Shown one piece after another: positions 558 through 52,126 of a DNA stretch of 64,000 nucleotides. Made by a program: the position numbers and the translations under genes. How positions within the stretch are numbered: the first letter of the stretch is position 1; each line of letters starts with the position of its first letter. The notes beneath the pieces were generated by a model. That model worked only from the letters and a program-made list of their open reading frames with translations. It was not told the DNA's origin and ran no database searches. Source of the DNA: Bacteroidota bacterium (GTDB lineage: Bacteria; Bacteroidota; Bacteroidia; Bacteroidales; VadinHA17); contig JADFQJ010000008.1 of assembly GCA_022561875.1 (NCBI GenBank), positions 8,638 through 72,637 on the forward strand. Direction: 5' to 3'.

Positions 558-1883
558 ATGGAAGTTTTTGTCAAAATAGCACAGTTACTTTTAAGCTTAT
601 CAATACTGGTTATCCTTCATGAGTTTGGACATTTTATGTTTGCTAAACTGTTTAAGACCCGTGTTGAGAAGTTCTATTTGTTTTTCAATCCGTGGTTTTC
701 ATTATTTAAGTTTAAAAAGGGGGAAACGGAATACGGAATAGGTTGGCTGCCACTTGGTGGTTATATTAAGATATCAGGGATGATAGATGAATCTATGGAT
801 AAGGAGCAAATGAAAAAACCTCCCCAACCCTGGGAATTCAGGTCAAAACCTTCATGGCAGCGACTTATCATAATGCTGGGTGGTGTAATGGTGAATTTTT
901 TACTCGCTATAATAATCTATATTCTGATCCTTTTTGCATGGGGCGAAGAGTATCTGCCCACGGAAAATGTAAAATACGGAATACTGGTAGATTCTGTTGG
1001 TGTTGAAATGGGATTAATGAATGGGGATAGGATTATTAGCGTTGATAACCAGGAGATTGAAAAGTTTTATCAGATTATTCCTGATATAGTTTTAAATGAA
1101 AGAAAATCGATACAGATAAAAAGGGATGGCAGATTACTTGAGGTAAAAATACCTAAAGAAGTCATTCCGGCTCTTATTAATGGCAGAGGAAGAATTGATG
1201 TAAGAATCCCGTTCTCCCCCTTGATTGTTGAGGGTTTCATTAAAGAATCACCAAGTAAAAAAGCAGGATTGAAAACAGGTGATGAGATATTGGGTCTTGG
1301 CAATATGACTTTTGAGTATTATGATGAGTTTAAAAAGAAACTGGGTGAAAATAAAGAGGCGGAAATCACCCTGCAGGTTAAAAGAAATGGTGAAAACCTG
1401 GTTATCCCCGTAACGGTGAACAACCAGGGGATGATAGGGATAAGAAGGAATATTGAGGAATTTTTTGAATTTAAAAAGGTGGAATATGGTTTCTTTGAAT
1501 CGATACCGGCTGGTATAGCAAAAGGAATAAAAACACTGCAGAATTATCTGAAACAGTTTAAACTTATTTTTTCCAAAGATACCCAAGCTTATAAATCCCT
1601 GGGAGGTTTTATTACTATAGGAAGCCTCTTCCCCGGAACATGGGATTGGCAGGCTTTCTGGAATCTTACAGCATTTTTGTCTATCATTCTTGCCATAATG
1701 AATATTTTGCCCATCCCGGCTTTAGATGGCGGCCATGTAATGTTCCTGTTATACGAAGTGATTTCCGGTAGAAAACCCAGTGATAAATTTTTGGAATATG
1801 CCCAGACGACAGGTATGATCATCCTGTTATCGCTGCTGTTATTTGCTAACGGGAACGATATTATAAGGTATTTTAATAGGTGA
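558..1883 (+). CDS. rseP: RIP metalloprotease RseP (site-2 protease, M50 family) with PDZ domain
   Basis: HEFGH zinc motif at the N-terminus, multiple TM segments, a central PDZ-like region, and a C-terminal NILPIPALDGGH motif typical of M50 proteases. Confidence 0.9.
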   Translation: MEVFVKIAQLLLSLSILVILHEFGHFMFAKLFKTRVEKFYLFFNPWFSLFKFKKGETEYGIGWLPLGGYIKISGMIDESMDKEQMKKPPQPWEFRSKPSWQRLIIMLGGVMVNFLLAIIIYILILFAWGEEYLPTENVKYGILVDSVGVEMGLMNGDRIISVDNQEIEKFYQIIPDIVLNERKSIQIKRDGRLLEVKIPKEVIPALINGRGRIDVRIPFSPLIVEGFIKESPSKKAGLKTGDEILGLGNMTFEYYDEFKKKLGENKEAEITLQVKRNGENLVIPVTVNNQGMIGIRRNIEEFFEFKKVEYGFFESIPAGIAKGIKTLQNYLKQFKLIFSKDTQAYKSLGGFITIGSLFPGTWDWQAFWNLTAFLSIILAIMNILPIPALDGGHVMFLLYEVISGRKPSDKFLEYAQTTGMIILLSLLLFANGNDIIRYFNR

Positions 1884-1934
1884 GTAGGTGAGTAGGTGAG
1901 TAGGTGAGTAGGTAAGTAAATGAGTAAATGATAA
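1879..1934 (+). repeat. Tandem octamer array: GGTGAGTA x4 perfect plus 3 degenerate units
   Basis: Read directly: ggtgagta x4 (1879-1910), then ggtaagta, aatgagta, aatgataa. The rseP stop codon TGA (1881-1883) lies inside the first unit. No C occurs across the array. Confidence 0.9.
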
Positions 1935-2067
1935 GAGGGGGCGAAAGAAATTTCAAACACGTGAAATAATCCTTTTTTTTGTATGGTCATTAAAAAAAAA
2001 CTTTGTATTAGGTTTAACAATGAAAATATATTATTTTTGTATCACTAAAAACAAAAAGTAAAGAAAC

Positions 2068-2277: not shown

Positions 2278-2305
2278 ACATCTTCCTTTCAAGGATAGTT
2301 TTTAT

Positions 2306-2346
2306 ACCTGCCGGAGTTTTTTAAAAAATACCGGCAGGTTTTTTTA
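2306..2346 (+). terminator. Rho-independent terminator after tatA
   Basis: ACCTGCCGG (2306-2314) pairs with CCGGCAGGT (2331-2339), followed by a T-run to 2346. Confidence 0.75.
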
Positions 2347-2525: not shown

Positions 2526-3530
2526 ATGAAAACCTGGAAATACCATAAAAGCATTCTGATAATTATTATTATTTCGTTTCTGTTTTCCTGTAACAGCGAT
2601 TACAAAAGAGATGCAACATTGCTGCCTAAAATATCCGGGAAAACCGGTGAAATTTTACTGGTCATTAGCAAGAAAAAATGGGAGGGAGATATGGGACAGG
2701 CATTTAGAGATATTTTAGCTTATGACCAGTATGGGCTTCCCCAGCCTGAACCCATTTTTGATTTTGTGAATATTACTCCTGGTGGTTTTTCAAAGCTTCA
2801 TCAGCCGCACAGAAATATCATTTTTGTTAAAACAGGTAAGGATTTTAAGGAGCCGAAAATCACTTTCCGAAAAAACAGATGGGCTTACCCCCAACTGGTT
2901 ATTAATATTGAGGGACCTGATGATTTAACTGTAATAGATTTGCTTGAACAAAACGGAGATAAGATCGTTACTTGGATAAACGGGAAAGAACGGGCCAGGT
3001 TGACTACTTATTACAAGGGGTTGATGGACCCGGACATTGCGAAGAATATTGAGAAAGATCATCAAGTACATCTGGTGATCCCGGTGGGTTACAGCCTGGA
3101 TGTTAATAAAAAAGATTTCGCATGGGTCGCTAATGAGCCTCACTTCATTAGTCAGGGTATTCTGATTTATCACTATCCTTATACAGATACTAATACATTT
3201 ACACCTGAATACCTGATCAGGAAGAGAAATTACTATTTGAAAAAATATGTTCCAGGCCCCAATCCGGGCACATACATGACAACTGAAGATTTATTAAAAC
3301 CTGAATTTAAAGAATTCGAAATAGGGAAACGGTATTTTGCGCAGCTGCGTGGATTATGGAAGTTGGAGAATGGATTCATGGGTGGACCATTCATCAGTTT
3401 GTCAACTGTTGATGAGAAACTTAACAGGGTTGTAACAGTTGAAGGCTTTGTGTATGCTCCAGGGGATGAAAAAAGAGAATTTCTGCGCCAGCTTGAAACC
3501 ATCCTGTATACTCTTAAGCTTCAGGAATAA
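2526..3530 (+). CDS. Predicted lipoprotein of unknown function (possibly DUF4837-like)
   Basis: The signal peptide ends in a lipobox-like FLFSC. The ORF is 334 aa with no overlapping competitor. The family assignment is from memory only and is not verified. Confidence 0.6.
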   Translation: MKTWKYHKSILIIIIISFLFSCNSDYKRDATLLPKISGKTGEILLVISKKKWEGDMGQAFRDILAYDQYGLPQPEPIFDFVNITPGGFSKLHQPHRNIIFVKTGKDFKEPKITFRKNRWAYPQLVINIEGPDDLTVIDLLEQNGDKIVTWINGKERARLTTYYKGLMDPDIAKNIEKDHQVHLVIPVGYSLDVNKKDFAWVANEPHFISQGILIYHYPYTDTNTFTPEYLIRKRNYYLKKYVPGPNPGTYMTTEDLLKPEFKEFEIGKRYFAQLRGLWKLENGFMGGPFISLSTVDEKLNRVVTVEGFVYAPGDEKREFLRQLETILYTLKLQE

Positions 3531-3556
3531 TATGGAACACAGTATCCTTCTTAAGA

Positions 3557-3761
3557 GTTATAAGTTAAAAGTTATAAGTTAAGCTATTCGCATTTTGCTT
3601 TACATCAAGCTGTTACGAGTTTCGAGTTTCGTGTTACGGGTAAACGCATGTTTCTTTGGCTCTATTCTCTTCTCATTTTCTCATTTTCTCCTCTTCACCT
3701 TTTCGACCCTCAGACCTTTCGACTCTTCGACTTCTTCAATCTTCCATCATTCCATTCTTCC
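3557..3761. repeat. Composite short-repeat region between convergent genes
   Basis: gttataagttaa x2 (3557-3568, 3571-3582). cgagttt x2 (~3616-3629). ctcattttctcattttctcc (~3672-3691). ttcgac x3 (3703-3732). ccatcattccattcttcc (3744-3761) is the reverse complement of the GGAATGATGG word found elsewhere. Confidence 0.8.
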
Positions 3762-4837
3762 ACGTATGCCTGGTTCCTCAGCTGTGGTATAAATCCGGCT
3801 TCCCTGATAGCTGCCTGGATACTTTCAGCATCAAATTTATGCGAAGCGCCGGCTGCAGAAACTACATTTTCTTCGATCATTATGGAACCAAAATCATTTG
3901 CGCCGGCATGCAGGCAAAGCTGACCCGTTGATTTTCCGACAGTAAGCCATGACGCCTGAATGTTTTTTATATTTGGCAGGAATATTCTGCTTAATGCAAT
4001 AGTTCGTATATATTCTTCAGAGCTGATAGCGTTTTCTATACCCAGCTTACTTTTTAGAACTGTTCCCTGGTCCTGGAAAGTCCAGGGAATAAAGGCAATA
4101 AATCCCGGACTGGTATCCGGCTTTTCAGATTGCAAATCACGCAATACTTTTAAATGAGCAATCCGGTCTTTCTTTGATTCAATATGCCCGAACATCATGG
4201 TTGCAGAAGTTACAAGGTTCATTTTGTGAGCTTCCCTCATCACATCGAGCCATTCCCCGGTGTTTGCTTTTAACGGAGAAAGCTCCTTTCGTATATGGTC
4301 ACAAAGTATTTCGGCTCCGGCACCGGGCAGACTATCAAGTCCGGCACTGACCAGCTCTTCAAGCACTTTACGGAATGAAAGCTTCTCTTTGCGGGCAATA
4401 TGTACAATTTCCGGCGGACTTAATGCATGAAGCCTTAGTTCCGGGAATAATTCCTTCAATCTGCTGAATAACCCGGTATAAAATCCCAAACCGAGTTTAG
4501 GATGAAGCCCTCCCTGTAATAGTAATTGATTACCACCTTGATTGAAAAGCGTTTTGATCTTTTTCTGGTATTCTTCAATGGAAGTGATGTAACCGTCTGA
4601 GGCATTTTTTTTCCTGTAGAAATTACAGAATTTGCATTGTGAATAACAGATGTTTGTAATATTGACATTTCTGTCAATGATCCATGTTACTTTATTACCC
4701 GGTACAAGTTTCTGTCTTATCTGGCTGGCAACAAAAATAAGTTCATCAGTAGGAGCTGATGTGTAAAGTTTCAGACCTTCATCCGGAGTAAGAAACTTAA
4801 GAGCCAGGGCTTTGGAATATATTGTTTCAAAGTTCAA
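3710..4837 (-). CDS. Radical SAM enzyme of the MqnC/MqnE/CofH family (futalosine-route menaquinone biosynthesis)
   Basis: CxxxCxxC-type cluster motif NICYSQCKFCNF. Also QGGLHP, GAGAEIL and PLKANTGEWLDVMREAH blocks as in MqnC/MqnE. I cannot separate MqnC from MqnE by eye. The last ~16 codons are encoded by the repeat region. Confidence 0.75.
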   Translation of the reverse strand: MNFETIYSKALALKFLTPDEGLKLYTSAPTDELIFVASQIRQKLVPGNKVTWIIDRNVNITNICYSQCKFCNFYRKKNASDGYITSIEEYQKKIKTLFNQGGNQLLLQGGLHPKLGLGFYTGLFSRLKELFPELRLHALSPPEIVHIARKEKLSFRKVLEELVSAGLDSLPGAGAEILCDHIRKELSPLKANTGEWLDVMREAHKMNLVTSATMMFGHIESKKDRIAHLKVLRDLQSEKPDTSPGFIAFIPWTFQDQGTVLKSKLGIENAISSEEYIRTIALSRIFLPNIKNIQASWLTVGKSTGQLCLHAGANDFGSIMIEENVVSAAGASHKFDAESIQAAIREAGFIPQLRNQAYVEEWNDGRLKKSKSRKV

Positions 4838-4960: not shown

Positions 4961-4978
4961 CTTTTACAAAAATAGCAC

Positions 4979-9835: not shown

Positions 9836-9912
9836 ACATAGCTTCTACTAAAAGTTTAGTATGTGTAGTTAGAAACCTTAGCCATAGCCTTTATTACTCA
9901 TTAATAAACAAT

Positions 9913-18013: not shown

Positions 18014-18206
18014 AATAAATTCTTTTGAATAAATGAGTAGTTATTTTGGAACATTGGAATAATGGAATGTTGCCTGCCCTGTGACACCTATTCATTTTCC
18101 GGATGAACCATAAATGGACAAAAAAAATTGACAGGTTTATTAAACAAATAATTTTTTTTGTTTAATTTTAGCCTTGGTAAAAAATTAATTACTAAAATCA
18201 CTAATT

Positions 18207-18650: not shown

Positions 18651-18723
18651 AGTTTAATTTAGAATGATGAAATAAGAAAGGTGAGTAAGTTGAGTAGTTG
18701 AGTAAGGAAGAAGAAGAAAAGTA

Positions 18724-25033: not shown

Positions 25034-26293
25034 TTGAAAGTGACAGGCCAGAGTAAGTGTAAAATTATTAATGATCCGGTCTATGGGTTTATCAGCATAC
25101 CCTTTGATCTGATCTATGATTTAGTTGAGCATCCCTATTTTCAGCGGTTGAGAAGAATTAAGCAGCTAGGATTAACAAATTATGTATATCCCGGGGCAAC
25201 CCATACCCGTTTTCAGCATGCCCTGGGTTCGCTATACCTGATGAACCTGGCGATAAAAACCATACAGGCAAAAGGCAATGATATTACGGAAAAGGAAGCT
25301 GAAGCGGTGTTGGCAGCAATACTTTTACATGATATCGGGCATGGTCCGTTCTCGCATGCACTTGAACACAGTATTGTTGAACGTATTACACATGAAGATA
25401 TTTCCGGTATTTATTTGGAATTCCTGAATAAACATTTCAATGGAAAACTGGACCTGGCAATCAGAATATTCAGGGATGATTATAAAAAGAAATTTCTGCA
25501 TCAACTTGTTTCAGGACAGCTTGATATGGACCGGCTTGATTATCTTCACCGGGATAGCTTTTTTAGTGGTGTGGTTGAAGGCACTGTGAGTTATGACAGG
25601 ATAATTAAAATGTTGAATGTGGCGGAGGGTAATCTGGTGGTTGAAGCCAAAGGGATCTATTCAATCGAGAAATTTCTGATTGCAAGAAGATTCATGTACT
25701 GGCAGGTTTACATGCATAAGACTGTCATAGCAGGTGAGCAGATACTGGTTAATGTTTTGAAAAGAGCCAAAACTCTGGCTGATGATGGAGTAGAACTGTT
25801 TGCAACACCTTCCTTGAAATTTTTCTTGTATAATCATGTGAACAGGGAAAATCTTTTTTCTGCAAATCCCCTGTTCTCTAAAGAAGAAGTTCTTGATCAT
25901 TTTTCAAATCTGGATGATAATGATATAATATCTTGTGCCAAAGTGTGGGCGGATCATCCTGATTTTATTTTGTCATTTCTTTGTAAAGGGATAATTAACA
26001 GGAGGCTATACAAGGTTGAGATCAGTAATGAACCTTTTCCGGAGGACAGGGTTGAAGGGTTAAGAAAGAGAATAAAATCCCGTTATTCCATTACTGAAGA
26101 TGTAATGAATTATTTAGTTTTTACGCGATCAATTAGTGCTAACACATATAGTCCGGAAGAGAAGGAGATAAGAATAATGAATAAATCGGGGCGGCTGGAA
26201 AATCTGTCTGATGTTTCTGAGATGCTGAAAATATCAGCGCTGAACAAAACGGAAAAAAAATATATTTTGTGTCATTTTAAAGATATGGAATGA
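25034..26293 (+). CDS. HD-domain phosphohydrolase (SAMHD1/dNTP triphosphohydrolase-like)
   Basis: INDPVYGFI, RFQHALG, LLHDIGHGPFSH and DRLDYLHRDS blocks. The start is uncertain (TTG 25034 or GTG 25040). Confidence 0.8.
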   Translation: MKVTGQSKCKIINDPVYGFISIPFDLIYDLVEHPYFQRLRRIKQLGLTNYVYPGATHTRFQHALGSLYLMNLAIKTIQAKGNDITEKEAEAVLAAILLHDIGHGPFSHALEHSIVERITHEDISGIYLEFLNKHFNGKLDLAIRIFRDDYKKKFLHQLVSGQLDMDRLDYLHRDSFFSGVVEGTVSYDRIIKMLNVAEGNLVVEAKGIYSIEKFLIARRFMYWQVYMHKTVIAGEQILVNVLKRAKTLADDGVELFATPSLKFFLYNHVNRENLFSANPLFSKEEVLDHFSNLDDNDIISCAKVWADHPDFILSFLCKGIINRRLYKVEISNEPFPEDRVEGLRKRIKSRYSITEDVMNYLVFTRSISANTYSPEEKEIRIMNKSGRLENLSDVSEMLKISALNKTEKKYILCHFKDME

Positions 26294-26369
26294 TGGAATA
26301 ATGGAATGGCGCCTTCCCTGCCTGCCCCGCAGGGAAGAATGTGATGCAGAGACAAGGCATGCCTTGTCT
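26287..26369 (+). repeat. Intergenic module: GGAATRATGG array, 8-9 bp hairpin and 20-nt perfect palindrome
   Basis: ggaatgatggaataatggaatgg (26287-26309) contains the HD gene's TGA stop. The hairpin is cttccctgc/gcagggaag (26313-26337). The palindrome is AGACAAGGCATGCCTTGTCT (26350-26369). Confidence 0.85.
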
Positions 26370-26430
26370 TTGAGATTTGAAAAATGTTTGAAAAAAATAA
26401 AAAATAATAATTAACATATAACAACAACCA

Positions 26431-27471
26431 ATGGAATTTACAGCAAAAATTATCGCACAGTTCCTGGAGGGTGTGATCGAAGGAGATCCTGATGTTAAGG
26501 TAAATAATGTATCAGGAATTGAAGAAGGGAAAAAAGGAACAATAGCATTTATTGCTAATCCCAAATATGCTAAATATTTATATACAACCAAAGCCTCTGT
26601 TGTGTTGATAAATAAAAACTTTAACCTTGAGAAGGAGGTGAGCTGCACCCTGATAAGGGTCGAAGATGCTTACCAGGCCCTGGCATCTCTGCTTGATTTG
26701 TACGAGCAGCAAAAACCTGTAAAAAAAGGCATTCATAAAATGGCTTTCGTTGAGAAATCAGCAACGGTGGGGAAAGATATCTATATTGGGCCATTTGCTT
26801 ATATTGGCGAAAATGTAGTTGTTAAAGACCGGGCCAGAATATATCCACATGTTTATGTTGGCGACCAGGTTGTAGTTGGCGAGAAGTCTGTTATTTATTC
26901 TGGAGTAAAAATTTACCACGATTGCAGGATTGGATCAGGATGTATAATACATGCAGGAACTGTTATCGGATCTGACGGTTTTGGGTTTGCTCCCAAATCC
27001 AGTAAGGATTATAAGAAAATTCCCCAGGTTGGTAACGTGATACTGGAGGATGATGTTGAGATTGGTGCAAATTGTTCAATCGACCGGGCAACTATGGGTT
27101 CAACCATTATAAGGAAAGGTGTTAAGCTTGATAATTTAATACAAGTTGCCCATAATGTCGAAATTGGTAAAAACACGGTAATGGCTGCCCTGACAGGAAT
27201 TTCAGGATCAACAAAACTGGGGAGTGAATGTATGATTGGTGGACAGGTTGGGTTTATTGGCCATATTTCTATCGCTGACGGTGTGAAGGTTGGCGCTCAG
27301 GCAGGACTTCTTGCCAGTGTCAAGGATAAAGGGAAAGTGGTACTGGGCTCCCCCGCATTCGGTTTTACTGATTATCAAAGATCCTATGTTTATTTCAGGA
27401 AACTTCCGGAGCTGAATGCAGAAATTGAAGCCCTCAGAAAAGAGATAGATGAGTTGAAAGAAAGAACATAG
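26431..27471 (+). CDS. lpxD: UDP-3-O-acylglucosamine N-acyltransferase
   Basis: N-terminal LpxD domain followed by left-handed beta-helix hexapeptide repeats. It sits upstream of lpxC/fabZ-lpxA. Confidence 0.9.
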
Positions 27472-27490
27472 CTTCGCAAAGTAATTAAAA

Positions 27491-27704
27491 AGGCTGAGGC
27501 TAAGGCTAAGGCTGAGGGAGGTAAGAGGTTTTAGAAGTTTAGGGCATAAATAATAAAACACGATTTTACAAAATATCAAAAGGAAATTGTTATTTAAATA
27601 AACAAAAAAAAACAGGAAAGGGATGTTATAAAATTAAAAAAATAAGTCTAAATGGTTAATATATGCCGTTAAAAACCTTAGCCTTAGCCTCAGCCTTAGC
27701 CTTT
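27491..27704. repeat. Inverted pair of GGCTAAG/GGCTGAG heptamer arrays flanking an AT-rich core
   Basis: The left arm aggctgaggctaaggctaaggctgaggg (27491-27518) is near-complementary to the right arm ccttagccttagcctcagccttagccttt (27676-27704). They are separated by ~155 nt of A/T-rich sequence. Confidence 0.85.
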
Positions 27705-27777: not shown

Positions 27778-29178
27778 ATGATCGAAAAACAAAGGACCTT
27801 AAAAAGACCGGTAACCCTTGAGGGTAAAGGGCTCCATTCAGGTATTGACGTTACAATTACTTTCAAACCAGCCCCGGCGAACCATGGTTATAAATTTTGC
27901 CGCACTGACCTGCCCGATAAACCTGTTATCAGGGCAATGCCTGAAAATGTAGTGGATACGTCGAGAGGTACCACACTTGAAGAAAATGGTATTAAAGTAG
28001 CTACAATTGAACATGTTCTCGCTGCTTTTTTTGGAAAGCAGGTAGACAATGCTCTGATTGAAATTAAAGGTCCTGAAGCTCCGATAATGGGAGGTAGTTC
28101 TTATAAATTTGTTGAAGCAATAAAAAAAGCAGGGATAGTTGAACAGGATGTCGAGAGAGATTACTTTGTGGTAAAGGAAAGAATTATCTATTCAAACGAG
28201 GAAACCGGAGTGGATATGATCATTTATCCTGATGACCATCTGAGTATTAATGTGTTGATCGATTACAATTCTAAAGTACTGGGTAACCAGTATGCTATAC
28301 TAGACCGGATATCCAATTTCGAAAAAGAAATATCAATGTGCAGAACCTTCGTGTTTTTCCATGAACTGGAAGGCCTTGCAAAAATGAATATGATAAAAGG
28401 CGGGGATCTGGACAATGCAATTGTCATTCTCGACCGGAAAGTGAAGCAATCGGAAATTGACAGGATTGCTGATCTGTTCAATAAACCTCATATACAGGCT
28501 AATTCTGAAGGGATTTTAAATAATATCGATCTCCATTTCAGTAATGAACCTGCCCGCCACAAATTGCTGGATATCATTGGTGATCTGGCTTTGGTCGGGA
28601 AACCTGTTAAAGGAAGGATAGTAGCCACACGTCCGGGTCATTTTGCCAACACCGAACTGGCAAAACGTGTTAAACAGGAGATGAAAAAAGAAAGTTCAAG
28701 AAAATCTATTCCTGTTTATGACCCCAATCAATCTCCGGTAATGGATATTAATGAGATCCGCACAAAGCTGCCGCATCGTTATCCGTTTCTGATGGTTGAC
28801 AAGATTATTCATATGGATGATCATTCTATAGTGGGCGTTAAGAACTTAACATTCAATGAAGCTTTTTTCCAGGGTCATTTTCCGGGTGAACCAATAATGC
28901 CCGGTGTACTGCAAATTGAAGCTTTAGCCCAGGTAGGAGGAATACTGATACTGAATACTATTCCGGATCCCGAGAATTATTCCACCTACTTCCTTAAAAT
29001 TGATAAAGTTAAATTCAAACGAATGGTTGGCCCTGGTGATACCCTGATTCTAAAACTCGAATTGACAGACCCCATCCGGCATAGTATTGCAACTATGTAT
29101 GGAAGAGCTTATGTGGGTGATAAACTTGTTACTGAAGGTGAGTTTATGGCACAGGTAATAAAAACAAAAGGAAAATGA
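27778..29178 (+). CDS. lpxC: Bifunctional UDP-3-O-acyl-GlcNAc deacetylase / 3-hydroxyacyl-ACP dehydratase (LpxC/FabZ fusion)
   Basis: The N-terminal LpxC region (TLKRPVTLEGKGLHSG, HKLLDIIGDLAL) is fused to a C-terminal FabZ hotdog (LPHRYPFLMVDKI, HFPGEPIMPGVL). This fusion is typical of Bacteroidota. Confidence 0.93.
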   Translation: MIEKQRTLKRPVTLEGKGLHSGIDVTITFKPAPANHGYKFCRTDLPDKPVIRAMPENVVDTSRGTTLEENGIKVATIEHVLAAFFGKQVDNALIEIKGPEAPIMGGSSYKFVEAIKKAGIVEQDVERDYFVVKERIIYSNEETGVDMIIYPDDHLSINVLIDYNSKVLGNQYAILDRISNFEKEISMCRTFVFFHELEGLAKMNMIKGGDLDNAIVILDRKVKQSEIDRIADLFNKPHIQANSEGILNNIDLHFSNEPARHKLLDIIGDLALVGKPVKGRIVATRPGHFANTELAKRVKQEMKKESSRKSIPVYDPNQSPVMDINEIRTKLPHRYPFLMVDKIIHMDDHSIVGVKNLTFNEAFFQGHFPGEPIMPGVLQIEALAQVGGILILNTIPDPENYSTYFLKIDKVKFKRMVGPGDTLILKLELTDPIRHSIATMYGRAYVGDKLVTEGEFMAQVIKTKGK

Positions 29179-29945
29179 GATCAGAATCAGCACATATCCA
29201 TTCTGATGCCAGAATCGGAAATGATGTTGTAATTGAACCTTTTTCATATATCGCAGGTGATGTGGAAATAGGTAACGGTACATGGATCGGTCCGAATGTT
29301 ACCATAATGGATGGTGCCAGGATTGGCAGGAAATGCCGGATATTCCCCGGTGCGGTGATTTCAGCTATTCCCCAGGACATGAAGTATGCCGGAGAAAAAA
29401 GTACGGCAGAGATAGGAGACAATACAACTATCAGAGAATGTGTTACAGTGAACCGTGGTACAAAAACTTTTGAAAAAACCGTGGTGGGAAACAATACCCT
29501 GTTAATGGCTTATGTACATGTAGCTCATGATTGTGTTGTGGGTAATAATTGTGTGCTGGTAAACAGTGTCGGACTTGCCGGTGAGGTGATAATCGACGAC
29601 TGGGCCATTCTGGGAGGAGCCACTGTAGTACACCAGTTTGTCAATATAGGAGGACATGTGATGATCTCAGGAGGGTCAAAAGTGAGCAAAGATATCCCGC
29701 CTTATGTCAAAACCGGTCGCGAACCATTGATATATCTCGGAATTAATTCTATTGGATTGTCCCGCAGAAATTTCAGCAAGGAAAAAATAGAGGAGATACA
29801 TAATATTTATAGATGGATTTATAAGAAGGGCTTTAATAACACCCAGGCAATGGAGAAAATTGAAAATGAAATGCCGGCAACCCCTGAGCGGGATTATATA
29901 TTTTCCTTCATAAAAAAATCGAAAAGAGGTATAATACGAGGGTAA
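29175..29945 (+). CDS. lpxA: Acyl-ACP--UDP-N-acetylglucosamine O-acyltransferase
   Basis: Hexapeptide-repeat protein of 256 aa. It has a 4-nt ATGA overlap with lpxC/fabZ and the LpxA C-terminal helical domain. Confidence 0.9.
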   Translation: MRSESAHIHSDARIGNDVVIEPFSYIAGDVEIGNGTWIGPNVTIMDGARIGRKCRIFPGAVISAIPQDMKYAGEKSTAEIGDNTTIRECVTVNRGTKTFEKTVVGNNTLLMAYVHVAHDCVVGNNCVLVNSVGLAGEVIIDDWAILGGATVVHQFVNIGGHVMISGGSKVSKDIPPYVKTGREPLIYLGINSIGLSRRNFSKEKIEEIHNIYRWIYKKGFNNTQAMEKIENEMPATPERDYIFSFIKKSKRGIIRG

Positions 29946-29948
29946 GAG

Positions 29949-30033
29949 TGGAATAATGGAATGATGGAACGATAGAACGATAGAACGATAGAACGATAGA
30001 ACGATATGAACGATCTGCCCTCTGCCTACTGCC
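29949..30033. repeat. Intergenic module: GGAATRATGG word, GAACGATA x5 array, reversed GGCAGAGGGCAG word
   Basis: tggaataatggaatgatggaa (29949-29969). gaacgata x5 perfect (29967-30006). ctgccctctgcctactgcc (30015-30033) is the reverse complement of the word at 32874-32894. Confidence 0.9.
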
Positions 30034-30037
30034 TTCT

Positions 30038-31084
30038 TCACCTCTTTCCTTCCAATCCGTTCCAGCCCTGGGCTTTAATCTTAACCTGAATCCCATCCGG
30101 GGTGATAAGGTTACATCCCTGGATTTTTTCAGTAATATGTCCTATTGGATGAATAAAGTCTGTTTCTTTTATTTTTTCAAAATCATCCAGCGACACAGTG
30201 AAAAGTAATTCGTAATCTTCACCACCGTTAAGAGCTGCTGTCATAGGATCAAGATGAAATTCCCCGGCAAGTTTTGTGGTTTCTTTATCAACAGGTATTT
30301 TCTCATAGTATATATTACAGCCCAAACCTGAGCTTTTGCAAATATGAAGGATCTCTGAAGAGAGTCCGTCGGAAATGTCAATCATTGATGTAGGCTTTAC
30401 TTTTTTCTCTTTTAGTTTTTCAATCAGATCAGCCCTGGGCTCGGGTTTTAACTGCCGGCGCAAAACATATTCATAACCACCAAGATCAGGCTGAGTACCG
30501 GGGACTTCACTGAATATCTTTTTTTCCCTTTCAAGCAGTTGCAGACCTAAATACGCAGCGCCAAGATCGCCGGTAACACATATAATATCATTTATGCGGG
30601 CAGAATCCCTGAAAACAATATCTTTCTCAGATGCCTGTCCTATGGCAGTGATGCTGATCGTCAGACCGGTAAGTGAAGATGAAGTGTCGCCCCCAACCAG
30701 ATCAACTCCGTATTTGTCACAAGCTAAATATATTCCCTCATATATAAGATCAATATCTTCAACAGCAAATTTGCTGGAAATACCTAACGAAATAACCATT
30801 TGGGTCGGATCGGCATTCATAGCATATATATCGGAAAAGTTTATAACTGCTGCCTTGTATCCAAGATGCTTGAGAGGCGTGTAAATCAAGTTAAAATGAA
30901 TTCCCTCCAGCAGAATGTCTGTAGTGACAACTGTCTGGTCTTTACCATGATCAATTACAGCAGCATCATCTCCCACACCTTTCCTGGTGCTTTTATTCCT
31001 GATCCGGATTTTTCCTGTCAGGTGGTCGATCAAACCGAACTCTCCCAATTTTGAGATGGGTGTTTTTTTCTCTCTATCCGGCAT
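30038..31084 (-). CDS. thiL: Thiamine-monophosphate kinase
   Basis: AIR-synthase-like fold motifs (GVGDDAAV, TTDILLEGIHF, GGDTSSS), 348 aa. Confidence 0.88.
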   Translation of the reverse strand: MPDREKKTPISKLGEFGLIDHLTGKIRIRNKSTRKGVGDDAAVIDHGKDQTVVTTDILLEGIHFNLIYTPLKHLGYKAAVINFSDIYAMNADPTQMVISLGISSKFAVEDIDLIYEGIYLACDKYGVDLVGGDTSSSLTGLTISITAIGQASEKDIVFRDSARINDIICVTGDLGAAYLGLQLLEREKKIFSEVPGTQPDLGGYEYVLRRQLKPEPRADLIEKLKEKKVKPTSMIDISDGLSSEILHICKSSGLGCNIYYEKIPVDKETTKLAGEFHLDPMTAALNGGEDYELLFTVSLDDFEKIKETDFIHPIGHITEKIQGCNLITPDGIQVKIKAQGWNGLEGKR

Positions 31085-32775: not shown

Positions 32776-33010
32776 GGGGGAGAAGAGGCGAAAGAGCGAG
32801 GGGGCGAGGGGGCGAGGGGGCGACAAAGAGAAGGGGAGAAGAGGAGAATAAAGAAGTAAATAGTAGGTAGTAAGTAGGCAGAGGGCAGAGGGCGAAGAGG
32901 AGAAGAAGAAAATAATGAATGTAGAATAATGAATTTAGAATGTAAAATGTAATGTGTTAAGTTTGAACCAGTAACCAGTAACCAGTAACCAGTAACCAGT
33001 AACCAGTAAC
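32776..33010 (+). repeat. 235-nt mosaic of short tandem-repeat words in the sufB-sufC spacer
   Basis: It starts immediately after the sufB TAA. It contains gcgagggg x3 (32796-32819), aagaagtaaatagtaggtagtaagtag (32851-32877), gtaggcagagggcagagggcg (32874-32894), aataatgaat variants, and CAGTAAC x6 (32969-33010). Confidence 0.9.
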
Positions 33011-33020
33011 ATATAACATA

Positions 33021-36411: not shown

Positions 36412-36559
36412 GAAGAAGTAGGAAGAGGTGAGAGATGAGAAGATGAGAGATGAGAGGTGAGAGATGAGAAGAGAGAAGATGAGAGATGAGAGATGAGAGA
36501 TGAGAGAAAAAATAAGGAGTCGGGAGTAAGGAGAAAGCAGGGGGCTTGAAGCAAAGAGC
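36412..36559 (+). repeat. C-free purine-rich repeat module in the sufS-sufE spacer
   Basis: It starts right after the sufS TGA. An imperfect GAGAGAT/GAGAAGAT array (36428-36507) has no C for over 100 nt. It is followed by agcagggggcttgaagcaaagagc (36536-36559), which recurs at 37068-37091. Confidence 0.9.
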
Positions 36560-36608: not shown

Positions 36609-37043
36609 ATGACACTAAACGAAATTCAGGATGAAATTATTGAAGACTTTGAGTTTTTCGATGAATGGATGGATAAGTATAACTACCTGATCGAATTGGG
36701 GAATAAGCTTGAACCAATAGATCCGAAATATAAGAATAATGGATATCTTATCGAAGGATGCCAATCGAAAGTATGGCTTCGTACCGAACTGGACCAGGGG
36801 AAAGTCAGGTTCACTGCAGATAGCGATGCGATCATTACTAAGGGGATTGTAGCTTTGCTGGTAAAAGTACTGTCAGGACGGAAGCCGGAGGAGATCAAAG
36901 ATGCTGACCTCTATTTCATCGACCGGATCGGATTAAAGGAAAACCTGTCACCCACCCGCTCGAACGGACTACTGGCAATGATGAAGCAAATGAAATTGTA
37001 TGGTCTGGCTTATTATGCAAAACAAGGGGAGAGTAAGAAGTAA
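36609..37043 (+). CDS. sufE: Cysteine desulfuration (sulfur acceptor) protein SufE
   Basis: 144 aa with the active-site block IEGCQSKVWL typical of SufE/CsdE. Confidence 0.88.
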   Translation: MTLNEIQDEIIEDFEFFDEWMDKYNYLIELGNKLEPIDPKYKNNGYLIEGCQSKVWLRTELDQGKVRFTADSDAIITKGIVALLVKVLSGRKPEEIKDADLYFIDRIGLKENLSPTRSNGLLAMMKQMKLYGLAYYAKQGESKK

Positions 37044-37130
37044 ATAGTATGTAGTAAGTAGAAAAGGAGCAGGGTGCTGAGAGCAAAGAGCGACGGGGCG
37101 ACTGAGCGAGGGGGCGAAGAGGCGAAGAAG
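37035..37130 (+). repeat. Repeat module spanning the sufE stop codon and the sufE-sufT spacer
   Basis: aagaagtaaatagtatgtagtaagtag (37035-37061) contains the sufE TAA and matches 32851-32877 at 26 of 27 positions. agcagggtgctgagagcaaagagc lies at 37068-37091. gagcgagggggcgaagaggcgaagaag lies at 37104-37130. Confidence 0.9.
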
Positions 37131-37161
37131 AGAAAAGTAAAAAATAATTAATTTTGAATTT

Positions 37162-38461: not shown

Positions 38462-38774
38462 TATATTGGTCATACTGTTGAAAAGAGGCAAACAATTCCT
38501 GCTTTCCTGACTTAAAAGTTTTCTCTGCGTCTCTGTAACTCTGCTATTTGTTTTTTTCAATTCATAATTCGTTAAGTTGATCGTCATGACAGTATTGTGG
38601 ATGGATTTATTGGTGAGGAAATCTTTGTCGGGTTGATGAATGATCCCCGTATTGATGATATGCTATCGATTCCGGAGACACCAAACGAGGAGATATGGAA
38701 GAAAGAGATTGAGTTTTTTTTCCGTTCTGTGGAGGGTTAAAACCCGACAGTTGTATTGGTTTCATCTGGTGTAT

Positions 38775-45195: not shown

Positions 45196-45712
45196 CAGGT
45201 TAATTTTTCCAGGGTTTTTATCATAGGCAATTTGTTTTTAATGCGTTGCATATAACAATTATTTTATAGACAAATACTAATCAAAGTCTGTTTATAAACT
45301 CTATATTTCGTTTATAAATAAATAACAAATCTCAAAAAACAAATAACAAATAAATTCCAAATATCAATTATCAAATGACCGAAACAGCTTTGAATATTGA
45401 GATTTTTGTCATTGAGATTTATTTGTATTTTGGTGCTTGTCATTTATGATTTTCACTATTTATTTAAACTTTCTAACTTTATAGACGGACTCTAATTAAT
45501 AAATATAGCCTTCATATTCTATAAAAACCATTTAGCTATCCGTTGCAAAGATTTTATGTATTTAACTTGAATGATCCGAAATATTTAGAATTATTAACCC
45601 TAATTATTAACCTAAACTATGGATGAAAGAATCATTCTAAATATGCTTTATAAAATTGTACAACATCAAGCTAAATGGTTATGTTTTTCAATGGTTTTCT
45701 GATATTTAAAAA

Positions 45713-49374: not shown

Positions 49375-49421
49375 ATTAAATATTTTGAGTTTATGGACAA
49401 GCACTAAATAAAAAAAATGAA

Positions 49422-51773
49422 TTAAAACTTAACAGGGATAATCATCTGCATCTTTACAGCCTTGCCGTTTCGTGTTCCGGGTTTCCATTTTCCGTTTGTC
49501 AGTTTAATTAACCTGATCGCCTCACGGTCCGCATCAGGATGTAACCCTTTTATAACTTTAATCGCTTTTACATTACCATATTTATCTACAATGAACTGAA
49601 CAAAAACAACACCTTTAAGTACGGCCTTTTTCAGTGATTCAGGAATTGTTAAGTTCTTCTTAATAAATGCTTTTAGACCATCGGCACCACCTGTAAATTC
49701 AGGCAATACATCGTTATCAGGAGAGAAGGCCATTTCATCTTCAACTTCAATTGCTTCACCCGAAACCTGAAGAGCCGGATTATATCCTTTTATTCCTGAT
49801 GAACCTCTTAAGAACATTGCCGATTTTTTTGCGATTCCTCCGATCGCGTAATTGGTCGCCCCGTCAGGAAGCGGAAGGGGTTGTTTTATAGTAGTTACCT
49901 TTCCGTTCTCATTCCTTATTTCAGAATCCAGCGCAATAAAAGATGTATATTTCGTCAAAAGATTATATTTTAAACCAAGTGCGGTAACCTTCTCTTTTAT
50001 ATCATCATCAGAACCTGATACCCGCTGATAGTCGTCTAAAAAACGGATCTTTTCCCTGGCCCACAGATATTTAATGGCTGAGTTTTTATTTGAAGAACTT
50101 ACCGGACTTACTTTTAATGTTTTATTATATTTTTCCCCGCCAGACGTACCGGTTATCTTAATTGAACCTGTGCGTGATCCTTTCCATTTTCCAAACAAAA
50201 TTACCGGGCGTTCAGCCAGCAGATCCGGCACATTCAACGGTTCGATATCATATGCATTAAAACCATTATATGATACCTCAATATTAGTTAATACAGGGGT
50301 TGAAACATATTTTCTGAAACCGGCAGCTTTTTTCTCTGCCTCTTTTTCATTGATGACAATAAAAGGTTTGCCTCTTCCAATATGTGCCATGCCTTCAATC
50401 AGATACCTGTTCACCGAAGAGCCGATACCAAAAGTGAAAAAGTTTGCTTCACCAAGATTCCTATCCATAAAATCAAAAGTTTCTTTCTCAACACGGATAT
50501 AACCATCGGTGGCAATAATGAAACTCCTGGAGTAACCTTCGGTTTGCGGCAGGGTCATTGCCCTTTTCAGAGCAGAGAGCAATTCCGTACCTCCGCCGCC
50601 TGATTGCCTGTTGATAAAACCAATCGCATTCGCGATATTTTCCTTTTTTGCCGGAACCGATTCTTCAGAAAACAGGTTTGAACAACCGGCAAAAAGCATA
50701 ACATTGAACCTGTCATCAGGTCTGAGATCATTAAGCAGGTTTTTCATCAGTTGTTTGGAAACATCCAGTGGAAATCCGTGCATTGAGCCAGAAACATCTA
50801 CAATGAAAATAAATTCACGTGGAGGTATTTCTTTCCGGAGAACCCGTTTGGGCGGCTGTACCATTGCAAGGAAGAAATTCTCCGTTTCTCCTTCATATAA
50901 AATAAGTCCCGATTCAATCCTGTCACCGGAAAGACGGTAATCAAGAATAAAATCTTTATCACCCTGAAAGGTTTCGGGATCATTCAGCAGTATCTGTGCT
51001 TTGTTTTTACCCTGGTAAGTCACTGTAACATCATGCGAAAGCGAGGATAATGACCGGATTGGTAATCCTGCTGAAATATTAACTTCTATATCAAATGAAT
51101 AATTGGGCGATTTGCCCTCTTCCAGGTATGGATTGCTTACCCAATTGTCATCCTGTGGATTAGTACGGTCTGAATCTCCTGCATATCTCGGACCAACCAC
51201 GGCAGGGAAGACAAATTTATATATTGCAGATTCCGGTATGAGCAATTCGGTGTATTTCATTTCTACCTCGATAATATCACCGGGCAGGATATTAGCCACG
51301 TTCATCCTGAAAACATTTGGTCTTTCCTGTTCAAGCAAAGATACTGTCTGTCCGTTGGCTTTAGCCGCTTCATAGTTTTGCCGGGCTTTTTCCCTTTCCT
51401 GGATCACAGCAATTATCTCCCTTTCCCCGATCTTCATTTTCATTGAATATACTGCCGACCTGGTTGAAGCGGGAAAAACATAAATTGCTTCAAGAGTGTT
51501 TTTCCCTGTGTTCTGGTAAACCTGGTTAATGGTTACATCAGCTATAACTCCTGCAATATTTACATTTGCAAAAGTTTTTTTCAGTGGTAACCGGTCTGTT
51601 TCAGGATTTTCACTTTGAACAAAAAAATAGGGCGACTGGTTCTGATCATCCGGGGGAAAGATCGCAGGTGAAACAGCGCGCTGGGCATTTAAATTGAACA
51701 ATCCAATTATCAAAGTGACAAGCAGGATCATGCGATTCCTGATTTGCTTTTTGTTTTGATATAAAGTTTTCAT
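49422..51773 (-). CDS. Secreted VIT domain + von Willebrand factor A domain protein with C-terminal TonB_C-like domain
   Basis: Signal peptide. VIT-like region (VNIAGVIADVTINQVYQN..EAIYVFP). vWA with MIDAS DVSGSM. The C-terminal ~90 aa (LPEFTGGADGLKAFIKKNL..GVVFVQFIVDKYGNV..NGKAVKMQMIIPVKF) resembles the TonB C-terminal fold. Confidence 0.8.
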   Translation of the reverse strand: MKTLYQNKKQIRNRMILLVTLIIGLFNLNAQRAVSPAIFPPDDQNQSPYFFVQSENPETDRLPLKKTFANVNIAGVIADVTINQVYQNTGKNTLEAIYVFPASTRSAVYSMKMKIGEREIIAVIQEREKARQNYEAAKANGQTVSLLEQERPNVFRMNVANILPGDIIEVEMKYTELLIPESAIYKFVFPAVVGPRYAGDSDRTNPQDDNWVSNPYLEEGKSPNYSFDIEVNISAGLPIRSLSSLSHDVTVTYQGKNKAQILLNDPETFQGDKDFILDYRLSGDRIESGLILYEGETENFFLAMVQPPKRVLRKEIPPREFIFIVDVSGSMHGFPLDVSKQLMKNLLNDLRPDDRFNVMLFAGCSNLFSEESVPAKKENIANAIGFINRQSGGGGTELLSALKRAMTLPQTEGYSRSFIIATDGYIRVEKETFDFMDRNLGEANFFTFGIGSSVNRYLIEGMAHIGRGKPFIVINEKEAEKKAAGFRKYVSTPVLTNIEVSYNGFNAYDIEPLNVPDLLAERPVILFGKWKGSRTGSIKITGTSGGEKYNKTLKVSPVSSSNKNSAIKYLWAREKIRFLDDYQRVSGSDDDIKEKVTALGLKYNLLTKYTSFIALDSEIRNENGKVTTIKQPLPLPDGATNYAIGGIAKKSAMFLRGSSGIKGYNPALQVSGEAIEVEDEMAFSPDNDVLPEFTGGADGLKAFIKKNLTIPESLKKAVLKGVVFVQFIVDKYGNVKAIKVIKGLHPDADREAIRLIKLTNGKWKPGTRNGKAVKMQMIIPVKF

Positions 51774-51890
51774 TTTTTAGTAATTTTGGTTAAACAAATT
51801 GATCTGACCGAAATTGTCCGGTTTCATTTATTGGATGCAGGAAGAGACGAAATTCCATAAAAAAAAGGAAGAAGAATTAATCGCAGAGAC

Positions 51891-52126
51891 GCTAAGACGC
51901 AGAGACGCTGAGAAAAGGAGAAGAGTATCCGCCTTCGCCAAGGCTACGGCGGACGAAGGAAGAGACTAATGAATAATGATTAACGATTTGAAGAGACAAG
52001 GCATGCCTTGTCTTAGTGACCAGTAACCACAGTGAAATATGCTCCTTCCCCAGTGAAATACTTTCGTACCTCAAATTTCACGGGGCAAGCGTCGCATTTC
52101 ACGTGGCAAGCCAGTAACCAGTAACA
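51891..52126. repeat. Repeat/hairpin-rich module upstream of the second ECF sigma gene
   Basis: cgcagagacgct x2 (51891-51920). Hairpin ccgcc/ggcgg (~51930-51953). 20-nt palindrome AGACAAGGCATGCCTTGTCT (51994-52013). Nested GTGAAAT/ATTTCAC inverted repeats (52027-52106) are flanked by CAGTAAC words (52019-52028, 52110-52125). Confidence 0.85.

Follow-up and report, generated by a model that had tools for sequence, protein, structure and literature searches.

The intergenic spacers of a 64,000-nt stretch of DNA from a Bacteroidota bacterium (contig JADFQJ010000008.1, positions 8,638 to 72,637; hereafter the window) were found to carry tandem arrays of 6-8-nt units, which draw on a vocabulary shared between spacers, follow the direction of transcription in most cases, and differ by whole units between near-identical strains. 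We give a probability of about one half to the reading that these arrays are slippage-grown and copied modules of the short tandemly repeated repetitive (STRR) or LSSR type, which are filtered, and in part read, at the level of the transcript. The set is heterogeneous, the majority of arrays lying after stop codons or between cistrons.

Tandem Repeats Finder (TRF) and direct reading located arrays where a first-pass annotation of the sequence had placed them, and their number was far above chance: 17 arrays, covering 640 bp, were counted in the spacers, whereas 100 dinucleotide shuffles gave 1.39 ± 0.97 and at most 4. On a curated map of 43 genes, with arrays defined by a period of 5-9 and at least 2.5 copies, the 6.1 kb of spacer contained 19 and the 56 kb of coding DNA 7, i.e., 3.12 versus 0.12 per kb, a 25-fold difference. 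Of the annotated sites, those at 18031-18040, 9894-9902 and 38523-38535 are single copies only, and a supposed reversed form at 3672-3691 proved to be a different word, GAGAAAATGAG. The proposed sharing of one vocabulary was borne out, in that 22 distinct 14-mers were common to different spacers versus 2.0 ± 1.8 in shuffles (11 times), and 69 versus 23 12-mers. Thus, GGAATRATGGAA recurs at 18048, 26285, 29949 and 3742 (minus strand), GAGCGAGGGGGCGA at 32794 and 37104, AAGAAGTAAATAGTA at 32851 and 37035, GTAGGCAGAGGGCAGAG at 32873 (plus) and 30014 (minus), and CAGTAACCAGTAACA at 32969 and 52111.

The probability that these repeats are chance low-complexity sequence or an assembly artefact is negligible. 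Repeats do break short-read assemblies, and the single-copy sites are weak; however, both excesses over the shuffles stand against chance, and identical arrays were recovered in independent ENA, NCBI, JGI and Logan assemblies, on which ground an artefact, a possibility that the first-pass annotation had wished to see checked, was rejected. Short-read contigs and scaffolds indeed break within arrays. Among the L-numbered sequences (the strains, relatives and metagenome contigs compared with the window, L095-L214 being metagenome contigs), contigs begin or end inside arrays or scaffolds bear N-gaps in L083-L088, L094, L222 (5545-5644) and L082 (around 3490-3600). In L222 an apparent deletion of 111 nt, and in L082 a spacer that looked 156 nt longer, were dismissed as scaffold N-gaps of no biological meaning. 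Array density is patchy, since 10 kb of L219 past the ~62,200 point, which are not collinear with the window, were almost free of arrays.

The first-pass annotation had further proposed that the G/A-rich strand of each module is the sense strand of the gene whose 3' end it abuts. This orientation rule held for most arrays of the window, of which 16 were purine-rich on the sense strand, two on the antisense strand (the CCTTAG array at 27676 and one at 45320), and two neutral. Likewise, the sense-strand purine fraction was at least 0.65 in nine of 31 gene 3' flanks and 0.35 or less in none of them, while only 7% of the 3' flanks in 80 other Bacteroidota loci attained 0.65. As had been predicted, modules of opposite polarity meet in both convergent spacers; because the reversal occurs within these spacers, the polarity tracks transcription, not replication. 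Placement at 3' ends was also correct for most arrays, with some departures: 27676-27704 and 9876-9902 lie upstream of promoters, 51882-51913 lies in a divergent spacer, and 18678-18706 is a 5' leader behind a terminator-like hairpin.

Position with respect to stop and start codons was associated with two classes of words, both in sense orientation. Stop-proximal words are G/A-rich and almost free of C, and start-proximal arrays consist of A/C-rich heptamers with a GTAAC core (CAGTAAC, CCGTAAC, ACGTAAC, TCGTAAC). In the window and its relatives, such NNGTAAC arrays were found 10-58 nt before the starts of sufC, sigma-factor, dxr, sufE and FeS-assembly genes. The same word order was seen in a held-out spacer just outside the window, between an M23 peptidase gene and dxr, where GGTGAGTA and TAACCCG are reused. 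In the sufB-sufC spacer, the motif TAAGTTTG stands between the two classes; since it matches the Bacteroidota -7 promoter consensus (TAnnTTTG), the CAGTAAC array of this spacer may be a 5' leader.

Comparison with near-identical strains showed that the arrays gain and lose whole units by slipped-strand mispairing. The alignment of L081 with the window, 14,001 bases long, contained 5 substitutions, and every one of its indels fell inside an array. These comprised 6 nt (AGGCTA), 8 nt (GAACGATA), 7 nt (TAACATA) and 1 nt, the first three being one local unit each at the lpxD flank, the lpxA flank and the sufB-sufC spacer, respectively; the (TAACATA)2 before sufC in the window is a duplication relative to L081. 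L094 (fourfold identity 0.92-0.99) carried seven GAGAGAT units fewer, with a 50-nt difference at the sufS flank. The alignment of orthologous spacers, which the first-pass annotation had called for, thus revealed polymorphism both in presence and in unit number. Relatives with conserved synteny displayed compact or overlapping junctions. The sufS-sufE junction measures 197 nt in the window versus a 4-nt overlap, 5 or 65 nt in relatives (the two genes overlap or stand 5 nt apart in L089 and L090), the sufB-sufC junction 245 nt versus 26 or 69 nt (L092, L090), and the junction of lpxA with a convergent AIRS-domain gene 92 nt versus 3-6 nt (L090, L092); that of the convergent DUF4837 and MqnC-like genes measures 179 nt versus a 17-nt gene overlap in L216. 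In the RseP-TatA spacer, a graded series runs from TAATAAATGATTAT (L218) through (ATGAGTGA)3 (L216) and GTAGGTGAGTAAGGTGAG (L215) to (GGTGAGTA)5 in the window. Moreover, L090 and L092 contain the seeds of the GCGAGGGG and CAGTAAC arrays, and the seed AAGTAACATATAACATA of the sufC-upstream array exists in L092. This series and these seeds indicated that arrays grow in situ from the stop-codon region.

Modules were also copied between spacers, since the same words and modules occupy non-orthologous 3' flanks in relatives. GGCGAGGGGGCGACAAAGAGAAG of the window sufB flank was found at the MqnC 3' flank of L218, GGAATAATGGAATGATGGAA of the lpxA flank at an FeS-assembly gene flank of L092, AGAGATG arrays of the sufS flank at the 3' end of sufE in L090, GAGAAAATGAGAA of the MqnC flank at the sufE 3' flank of L094, and the ATTTCAC...GGCAAGC module of the 52-kb region in the sufB-sufC spacer of the strain L094. 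The words shared in this manner were identical 15-23-mers and the modules about 40-100 nt long; at the 3' flanks concerned (L218, L092, L089, L090, L094), the purine strand was the sense strand in every case. In addition, L094 carried an 82-nt insertion composed of words known from elsewhere, (CGTAACN)4 and GAGAAAATGAGAAAAG.

Such copying raises the alternative that the arrays behave as selfish, non-autonomous mini-elements or record a dedicated copying activity, in which case their words would be kept by the copying machinery and their polarity would reflect a survivorship filter or an oriented insertion preference. We regard this explanation as unlikely. In its favor are presence/absence differences between strains with 92-99% fourfold identity (the 82-nt insertion; the location of the ATTTCAC...GGCAAGC module), 20-23-mers shared without mismatch by non-orthologous flanks of different species, the inverted terminal arrays of two elements (27489/27676 and 52032/52075) and the inverted pairs formed by TGGAATNN across phyla. 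In Geobacter, insertion sequence (IS) elements also keep a constant distance from comparable paired octamer sites (PMC2700814). Against these, no transposase or RAYT-like gene was seen within the window, target-site duplications were not identified, although no systematic search for them was made, and most arrays are one-armed and grade into local seeds, which favors in-situ growth. Furthermore, the polarity flips with gene direction within 100 nt, unlike what replication-strand-specific transposition of single-stranded DNA would produce. Selfish copying could nevertheless operate together with a transcript-level filter, the two being compatible.

In spite of the lability of copy number, the identity of the words is held, as unit indels coexist with conserved words. 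The sufE 3' module was identical at 77 of 82 positions in L089, where it is tandemly duplicated, versus a fourfold identity of 0.77 or less. Compared with L092, where fourfold identity was about 0.57, the GGAAT array matched at 23/23 positions of the orthologous site and the right part of the HD-lpxD spacer at 79/84. The block at 3576-3646 matched at 69/71 in L218 and 62/66 in L215 (fourfold 0.52-0.58 overall, 0.55-0.58 for L218). Overall, several words were thus 94-100% identical where fourfold sites were 52-77% identical; because words outconserve synonymous sites, part of the vocabulary is probably read by a trans-acting factor. Two roles that the first-pass annotation had entertained, protein binding and self-spreading, may accordingly be said to have gained some support, both of them from word conservation and from the presence of the same words at non-orthologous flanks.

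The conservation bears on a rival that we consider tentative and rather doubtful, namely, that the words are sites of a putative single-strand RNA-binding protein, such as RRM-1 proteins of the RbpA/B/C type or ribosomal protein S1. The arrays would then be multivalent docking platforms in 3' untranslated regions, intercistronic RNA and leaders, where docking would set mRNA stability or translation of the next cistron and copy number would tune the effect, in the manner of TRAP or HutP. This would account for the 94-100% word conservation in the absence of conserved secondary structure, the strict sense polarity of an unstructured RNA, the reuse of words at many flanks within a genome, and the genome-specific vocabularies. 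The start-proximal heptamers also resemble the TAACTGA repeats, a case in which control of translation has been suggested (PMC4679880). In Bacteroides thetaiotaomicron, RbpB binds a three-copy C-free octamer, GUAGGAUA (KD 5.1 μM), and not a C/U-rich probe (bioRxiv 10.1101/2021.04.27.441718); the window unit GUAGGUGA agrees with this octamer at 6/8 positions, which we take as a lead only. On the other hand, close relatives lack arrays at the same junctions, which argues against an essential role tied to a given gene, and the many unrelated words per genome would need many readers or a very loose specificity. Moreover, CLIP (crosslinking and immunoprecipitation) peaks of B. thetaiotaomicron RbpB are mainly coding, a purine-repeat motif not being reported (PMC11697453).

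The RNA of the array-bearing spacers proved to be essentially devoid of structure. The sufB-sufC spacer RNA folded at -17.2 kcal/mol over 245 nt (z = +2.46), 199 of 200 shuffles folding at least as well, and that of the sufS-sufE spacer, at -10.6 kcal/mol over 197 nt, was essentially unstructured. For the shared module AGCAGGGNGCU...AGCAAAGAGC, no conserved fold was obtained (RNAalifold, -1.9 kcal/mol, covariation term absent), and neither the window nor 10 related loci gave an Rfam match at gathering thresholds. These results bear on the possibility that the arrays are transcription terminators or attenuators of an unusual kind, which is very improbable. Their position at gene 3' ends, the long hairpins formed by the TGGAATNN word in other taxa, and the 29-bp stem that the inverted AAGGCT pair could make are compatible with it, but large purine arrays cannot fold, the window scans detected no site with hairpin and T-run overlapping the purine arrays, and three of the largest arrays are internal to the suf operon, where the cistrons on either side overlap or almost abut in L089 and L090. 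The 'terminator-like' role offered by the first-pass annotation was therefore rejected. Its exclusion of CRISPRs and palindromic REPs agreed with both repeat architecture and folding: the 6-8-nt units run head-to-tail without spacers, in contrast to the 23-50-nt repeats and unique spacers of CRISPRs, and the spacer RNAs fold no better than shuffles, whereas palindromic REP/BIME units form stem-loops. Its suggestion that GGA motifs act as a sponge is unlikely in the sense of CsrA, given that no hairpins present GGA and that no homologue of CsrA, Hfq or ProQ was found in a survey of 58 gut Bacteroidetes genomes (bioRxiv 10.1101/2021.04.27.441718).

To what extent these properties extend beyond the lineage was assessed in a census of 1.24 Mb around sufB, with 80 loci taken from other species of Bacteroidota. 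Arrays in spacers peaked at period 7 (52 arrays) and period 8 (20), with 40 and 16 per 100 kb of spacer versus 0.8 and 0.5 per 100 kb of coding DNA, i.e., an enrichment in spacers of about 50 times. A unit was shared, with at most one mismatch on either strand, by 34.5% of within-genome pairs and by 3.4% of between-genome pairs (odds ratio 15, p = 1e-19). Purine richness on the sense strand prevailed by 22 to 4 among arrays no more than 20 nt from a stop codon (p = 5e-4) and by 15 to 11 among distal ones; all three frames were closed on 29 of 61 sense strands and 19 of 61 antisense strands. The window's own words were all absent from these loci, and the vocabulary is therefore lineage-specific, not phylum-wide; the shared-vocabulary and strand rules themselves hold phylum-wide, each lineage having its own words.

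In divergent spacers of the census, arrays were about four times rarer (0.24 per kb) than in co-directional or convergent ones (0.92-1.0 per kb). This depletion in promoter-only spacers speaks against the improbable alternative in which a nucleoid-associated or global regulatory protein would bind the arrays as double-stranded DNA, a role suggested for the paired hepta/octanucleotide sites of Geobacter metallireducens, where the precedent is itself a hypothesis (PMC2700814). Tandem direct repeats are typical of protein-binding architectures, and (CCTTAG)n, conserved in L092, stands about 70-100 nt before the ruvA and lpxC starts; however, duplex binding gives no reason for the strong polarity with respect to transcription, and most arrays lie behind stop codons or inside an operon.

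One word of the window has a wider distribution. A scan of JGI metagenomes for GGAATRATGGAATRATGG yielded at least 120 contigs of 35-64% G+C, with TGGAATNN arrays of 3-4 units among the matches listed, and at least 39 of the 120 contigs listed carried an inverted partner 20-234 nt away. Pairs of the form (TGGAATNN)3-4 ... (NNATTCCA)3-4 were observed between genes, e.g., at L197 6727-6800, L190 11316-11400 and L125 10127-10209, many of the paired sites being preceded by GTTAGTTCGCTTCGCTCACAATT or GGGGCTTCGCCCCAATT. Over about 177 nt, such pairs give long periodic hairpins with energies of -42 to -67 kcal/mol, and one contig bearing them was assigned to Syntrophales by its SelB homologues. These inverted pairs appear to be an unnamed dispersed element family; in the lineage of the window, the same word forms one-armed sense arrays at stop codons. 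GGAATRATGG displayed no gene-strand bias in the metagenomes (51 versus 42 among the matches listed), and this count is unusable for the present lineage because most matches come from other taxa with inverted pairs.

On the reading as slippage-grown, copied and transcript-filtered modules, units of 6-8 nt in 2.5-12 copies are combined as mosaics in the presumably transcribed spacers of housekeeping operons; slippage adds or removes whole units, arrays expand from short seeds at or next to a stop codon, and modules are additionally copied between spacers. Polarity would be imposed at the transcript level. Because 7- and 8-nt periods rotate the frame, a purine-rich sense strand whose repeat includes T should show TAA, TAG or TGA in all three frames, and with all frames closed, slippage at the boundary of a coding sequence would be unable to create long C-terminal tails. 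Purine-rich sense RNA, being G-rich, C-poor and unstructured, would neither fold into terminators nor offer a C-rich Rho loading (rut) site within operons. As the ribosomes of Bacteroidetes do without Shine-Dalgarno pairing, Shine-Dalgarno-like GGAG/GAGG runs would be harmless. Some words would probably be read as single-stranded sequence by a putative trans-acting factor, the remainder being tolerated filler.

Several points weigh against this reading. The CCTTAG arrays at 27676 and 9876, the array at 45320, and CTTTCAA after sufE in L092 are exceptions to the polarity. Terminal 3' flanks at convergent genes are as strictly polar as intra-operon spacers, for which a transcript filter alone offers no explanation, nor does such a filter alone explain purine richness over 200 nt. 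Richness in purines and in stop codons is inseparable, since stop codons consist of T and two purines. The Rho and Shine-Dalgarno arguments rest on general knowledge, and the presumed transcription of the arrays is read from gene order alone. Conservation above the synonymous level fits a functional or selfish element better than tolerated filler. As to the data, unit counts from metagenome assemblies may be wrong, the gene calls in the census were crude open reading frame (ORF) heuristics, and one orthologous site, the sufB 3' flank, is over-represented because all 80 loci surround sufB.

With respect to known repeats, the window arrays fit a known, unexplained class of intergenic hepta- and octanucleotide simple repeats, and the statement in the first-pass annotation that they belong to no described family did not survive comparison with the LSSR/TAACTGA repeats (PMC4679880), the Geobacter sites (PMC2700814) and the STRR class. 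The likeness to STRR covers tandem units, few unit families reused at many intergenic sites of one genome, and units mixed within one spacer, near start codons or behind ORFs.

STRR were reportedly described from cyanobacteria by Mazel et al. in 1990 as tandem heptanucleotides. Their dispersal, with few unit families at many intergenic loci, was also found in the window, which differs in phylum and in its 6-8-nt units of unrelated sequence; the STRR units CCCCAGT, TTGGTCA and CAACAGT had no tandem occurrence in the window, whose host is not cyanobacterial. To our knowledge, neither a purine/sense polarity nor a stop- versus start-proximal grammar has been described for STRR. A study of Nostoc considered the role of its heptamer repeats still unresolved (bioRxiv 10.1101/2022.06.06.494920).

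LSSR (Mrazek et al. 2007), in what PMC4679880 relates of them, are 5-11-nt tandem repeats longer than expected by chance, mostly non-coding and most commonly heptanucleotides, with polymerase slippage as the proposed origin. The window arrays likewise showed an excess over composition and unit-number polymorphism, whereas LSSR are a descriptive class, silent on shared vocabularies, strand rules and word conservation. MacGregor (2015) reported that Beggiatoaceae, Cyanobacteria and five Bacteroidetes carry intergenic TAACTGA heptamer arrays before start codons, with further heptamers next to them, and proposed translational control (PMC4679880). Forward heptamer arrays a few nt before starts, one stop codon per unit and a cross-phylum occurrence are common to both systems: the NNGTAAC arrays stand forward and directly before start codons, and the (CAGTAAC)6 of the window, which has the TAAC core in common with TAACTGA, ends 10 nt before the sufC start. 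In contrast, the window arrays are mostly post-stop and G/A-rich, with many words per genome instead of one, and TAACTGA itself occurred in the window as seven single copies, never in tandem.

The paired hepta/octanucleotide sites of G. metallireducens (Aklujkar et al. 2009), hypothesised to be binding sites of a global regulator, consist of three to five tandem 7-9-nt units in dozens of copies per genome (PMC2700814). Their paired architecture is identical to that of the (TGGAATNN)3-4 inverted pairs in other taxa, but pairing concerns only two of the approximately 20 window arrays (27489/27676 and 52032/52075), and a strand rule was not reported for the Geobacter sites. The Geobacter consensus units GTTGCTYN and TCTCCGTS and the GGGACCG heptamer were not found in tandem in the window, MTYCTGA not having been searched.

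REP/BIME elements of enterobacteria are mosaics at gene 3' ends and between cistrons whose presence varies between strains. The window arrays resemble them as mosaics of few short motifs at such positions and differ in that REP units are folding, imperfect palindromes of 20-40 nt and the window units are 6-8-nt direct repeats; we know of no RAYT transposase for such tandem repeats. TRAP reads GAG/UAG every 5-6 nt and HutP reads UAG every 7 nt. Only in the sense of 'works like', evenly spaced purine words in unstructured RNA, with NAG at 7-nt spacing (GAGAGAU, CAGUAAC, AAGUAGU), recall these proteins, and no TRAP/HutP-like ring protein is known to us in Bacteroidota. The purine/sense polarity, the stop/start grammar, the above-neutral word conservation and the phylum-wide statistics were not found in PMC4679880, PMC2700814 or bioRxiv 10.1101/2022.06.06.494920.

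The window has a G+C content of ~38%, 90% of it being coding, and as summarized in Table 1, its arrays are distributed along a housekeeping gene set of a Bacteroidota bacterium. By Pfam, this set includes rseP, tatA, a DUF4837 gene, an MqnC-like radical SAM gene, malic enzyme, ruvA, sprA, gcvH, infB-nusA-rimP, lpxD-lpxC/fabZ-lpxA, sufBCDS-sufE, queG, a SusC/D pair and an ECF sigma factor. The top match of SufB in a set of 185,579 species representatives was 83% identical, the hits being Bacteroidota and Bacteroidales metagenome-assembled genomes (MAGs), and the species of the window is therefore absent from that set. Proteins identical to those of the window were present in metagenome assemblies from ENA, NCBI and Logan. 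Past the gene at 61099-62196, the region 62200-64000 loses collinearity with two other assemblies of the same organism, which run on into secG, groES and groEL; either the strain carries an insertion or rearrangement of its own here, or the source contig was joined chimerically.

Table 1. Repeat arrays and related features of the window, with coordinates, strand and composition.
Feature	Position	Strand	Composition and remarks
RseP 3' flank	1877..1950	+	(TAGGTGAG)6.2 at 1877-1926, starting within the stop codon, then AAATGAGTAAATGA and GAGGGGGCGAAAG (TRF, reading)
DUF4837 3' flank	3551..3582	+	(TTAAAAG/TTATAAG)4.6; no counterpart in relatives L218, L215
Conserved block of NNGTAAC-family heptamers	3576..3646	-	CGTAACA CGAAACT CGAAACT CGTAAC on the minus strand
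MqnC-like radical SAM 3' flank and tail	3660..3762	-	GAGAAAATGAGAAAATGAGAAG, then GAAGAGTCGAA/TGGAAGAA and GGAATGATGGAA
ruvA upstream	9876..9902	+	CCTTAGCCATAGCC + TTACTCATT, 67-93 nt before the ruvA start; sense strand pyrimidine-rich
SprA 3' flank	18031..18069	+	AAATGAGTAG and (TGGAATAA)2.8
Purine-rich leader	18678..18720	+	GGTGAGTAAGTTGAGTAGTTGAGTAAGG + GAA runs; behind the terminator-like hairpin of gcvH, with the next ORF 17 nt downstream
HD-domain gene end	26285..26309	+	(ATGGAATG/ATGGAATA)3.0; TGA stop of the gene inside the array
lpxD 3' flank	27489..27517	+	(AAGGCT)4.7 at 27490-27517, left arm of a 29-nt inverted pair
Upstream of lpxC/fabZ promoter region	27676..27704	+	(CCTTAG)4.7 at 27676-27703, right arm of the inverted pair; conserved in L092
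lpxA 3' flank	29946..30014	+	GGAATAATGGAATGATGG, then (GAACGATA)6.9 (29959-30014)
Minus-strand AIRS-domain gene 3' flank	30014..30037	-	(AGGCAGA)3.4, reverse of the word at 32873
sufB 3' flank mosaic	32776..32910	+	GAGAAGAG, (GCGAGGGG)3.5 at 32796-32823, AAGAAGTAAATAGTAGGTAGTAAGTAG, (GGCAGAG)2.4, GAAGAGGAGAAGAAG
sufC upstream	32911..33020	+	(AATAATGAATGTAG)2.2, TAAGTTTG, (AACCAGT)6.4 at 32966-33010, (TAACATA)2 ending 3 nt before ATG
sufS 3' flank	36412..36530	+	(AGAGATG/AGAAGATG)11.7 (36424-36507), then AGTAAGG repeats
sufE 3' flank module	37035..37140	+	AAGAAGTAAATAGTATGTAGTAAGTAG ... GAGCGACGGGGCGACTGAGCGAGGGGGCGAAGAGGCGAAGAAG
Lone reversed CAGAGACGCAGAG copy	38523..38535	-	Single copy, hence weak
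Divergent spacer	51882..51920	+	(CGCAGAGA/CGCTAAGA)4.0, purine-rich toward the downstream sigma-factor gene
	52019..52125	+	CCAGTAAC; 2x CAGTGAAAT facing 2x ATTTCACG(G/T)GGCAAGC (28-nt inverted arms); (CCAGTAA)2

Some of these features deserve additional remarks. The site at 9876 carries the same word as that at 27676 (CCTTAG), at the same distance to the start codon, and the left arm of the inverted pair (AAGGCT) is lacking in L092. The block at 3576-3646, 71 nt long and built on GTTACGA/GTTTCGA heptamers, is a conserved non-coding element in the convergent DUF4837/MqnC spacer. In the neighboring MqnC-like ORF, the last 16 codons, past the end of the Pfam domain, are array sequence. The (GCGAGGGG)3.5 array with its adjoining G runs (32796-32836) matches a G-quadruplex pattern on the sense strand; the window has just one further match, at 25190-25223 of the minus strand. 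Because the pyrimidine-rich strand is free of stop codons, antisense ORFs exceeding 100 codons (1589-2020, 26277-26648 and 29676-30041, all minus strand) extend through arrays.

Other elements were observed alongside the arrays. TAACATATAACA, found at 26412-26423 and 33007-33018, 3-8 nt before the ATG of lpxD and sufC, and conserved in L092 and L094, is a candidate translation-initiation leader motif. The only REP-like hairpin is AGAGACAAGGCATGCCTTGTCT, a perfect 20-22-nt palindrome at 26348-26369 and 51992-52013 that is distinct from the tandem arrays and recurs at 384-405 of L092, in the orthologous HD-lpxD spacer, where synonymous sites are saturated. A hairpin module, CCGCCTTCGCC...GGCGGACGAAGG, occupies 51924-51967 in the divergent spacer before the sigma-factor gene, and a module resembling it was seen around 3325-3365 of L090, in the AIRS-sufB spacer. 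At 18093-18110 of the SprA-GcvH spacer, 17-18 nt are identical to the 'HFPDEP' coding motif of FabZ in relatives, with 1 mismatch to the window's own fabZ (28876-28892); the similarity ends beyond ~20 nt, and this may be a short templated patch. Finally, L215 contains a 1.3-kb non-coding stretch (1421-2719) with two copies of a ~190-nt unit, which end in a tRNA-like 3' part and adjoin an apparent tRNA gene.

As a speculative extension that we hold to be doubtful, Bacteroidota, which lack Hfq, ProQ and CsrA, might possess a phylum-wide post-transcriptional layer written in genome-specific 7-8-nt words. Stop- and start-proximal arrays would serve as landing pads for RNA-binding proteins, with RRM-1 proteins as the first candidates, and slippage would be a rheostat that retunes neighboring cistrons between strains. 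TGGAATNN would then be a code word shared with Desulfobacterota-type bacteria, where it forms periodic hairpins.

For the annotation of MAGs, the arrays are of practical concern, as they entail broken assemblies, spurious antisense ORFs and array-encoded C-terminal tails. Hepta- and octamer tandem repeats have been recorded since 1990, and their function and spread have never been explained. The present lineage provides handles on them, namely, a strand rule tied to transcription, a stop/start grammar, unit differences between strains, compact junctions that represent the state 'before', and conserved words. These handles turn a descriptive oddity into testable alternatives: a transcript filter, protein docking, and selfish copying.

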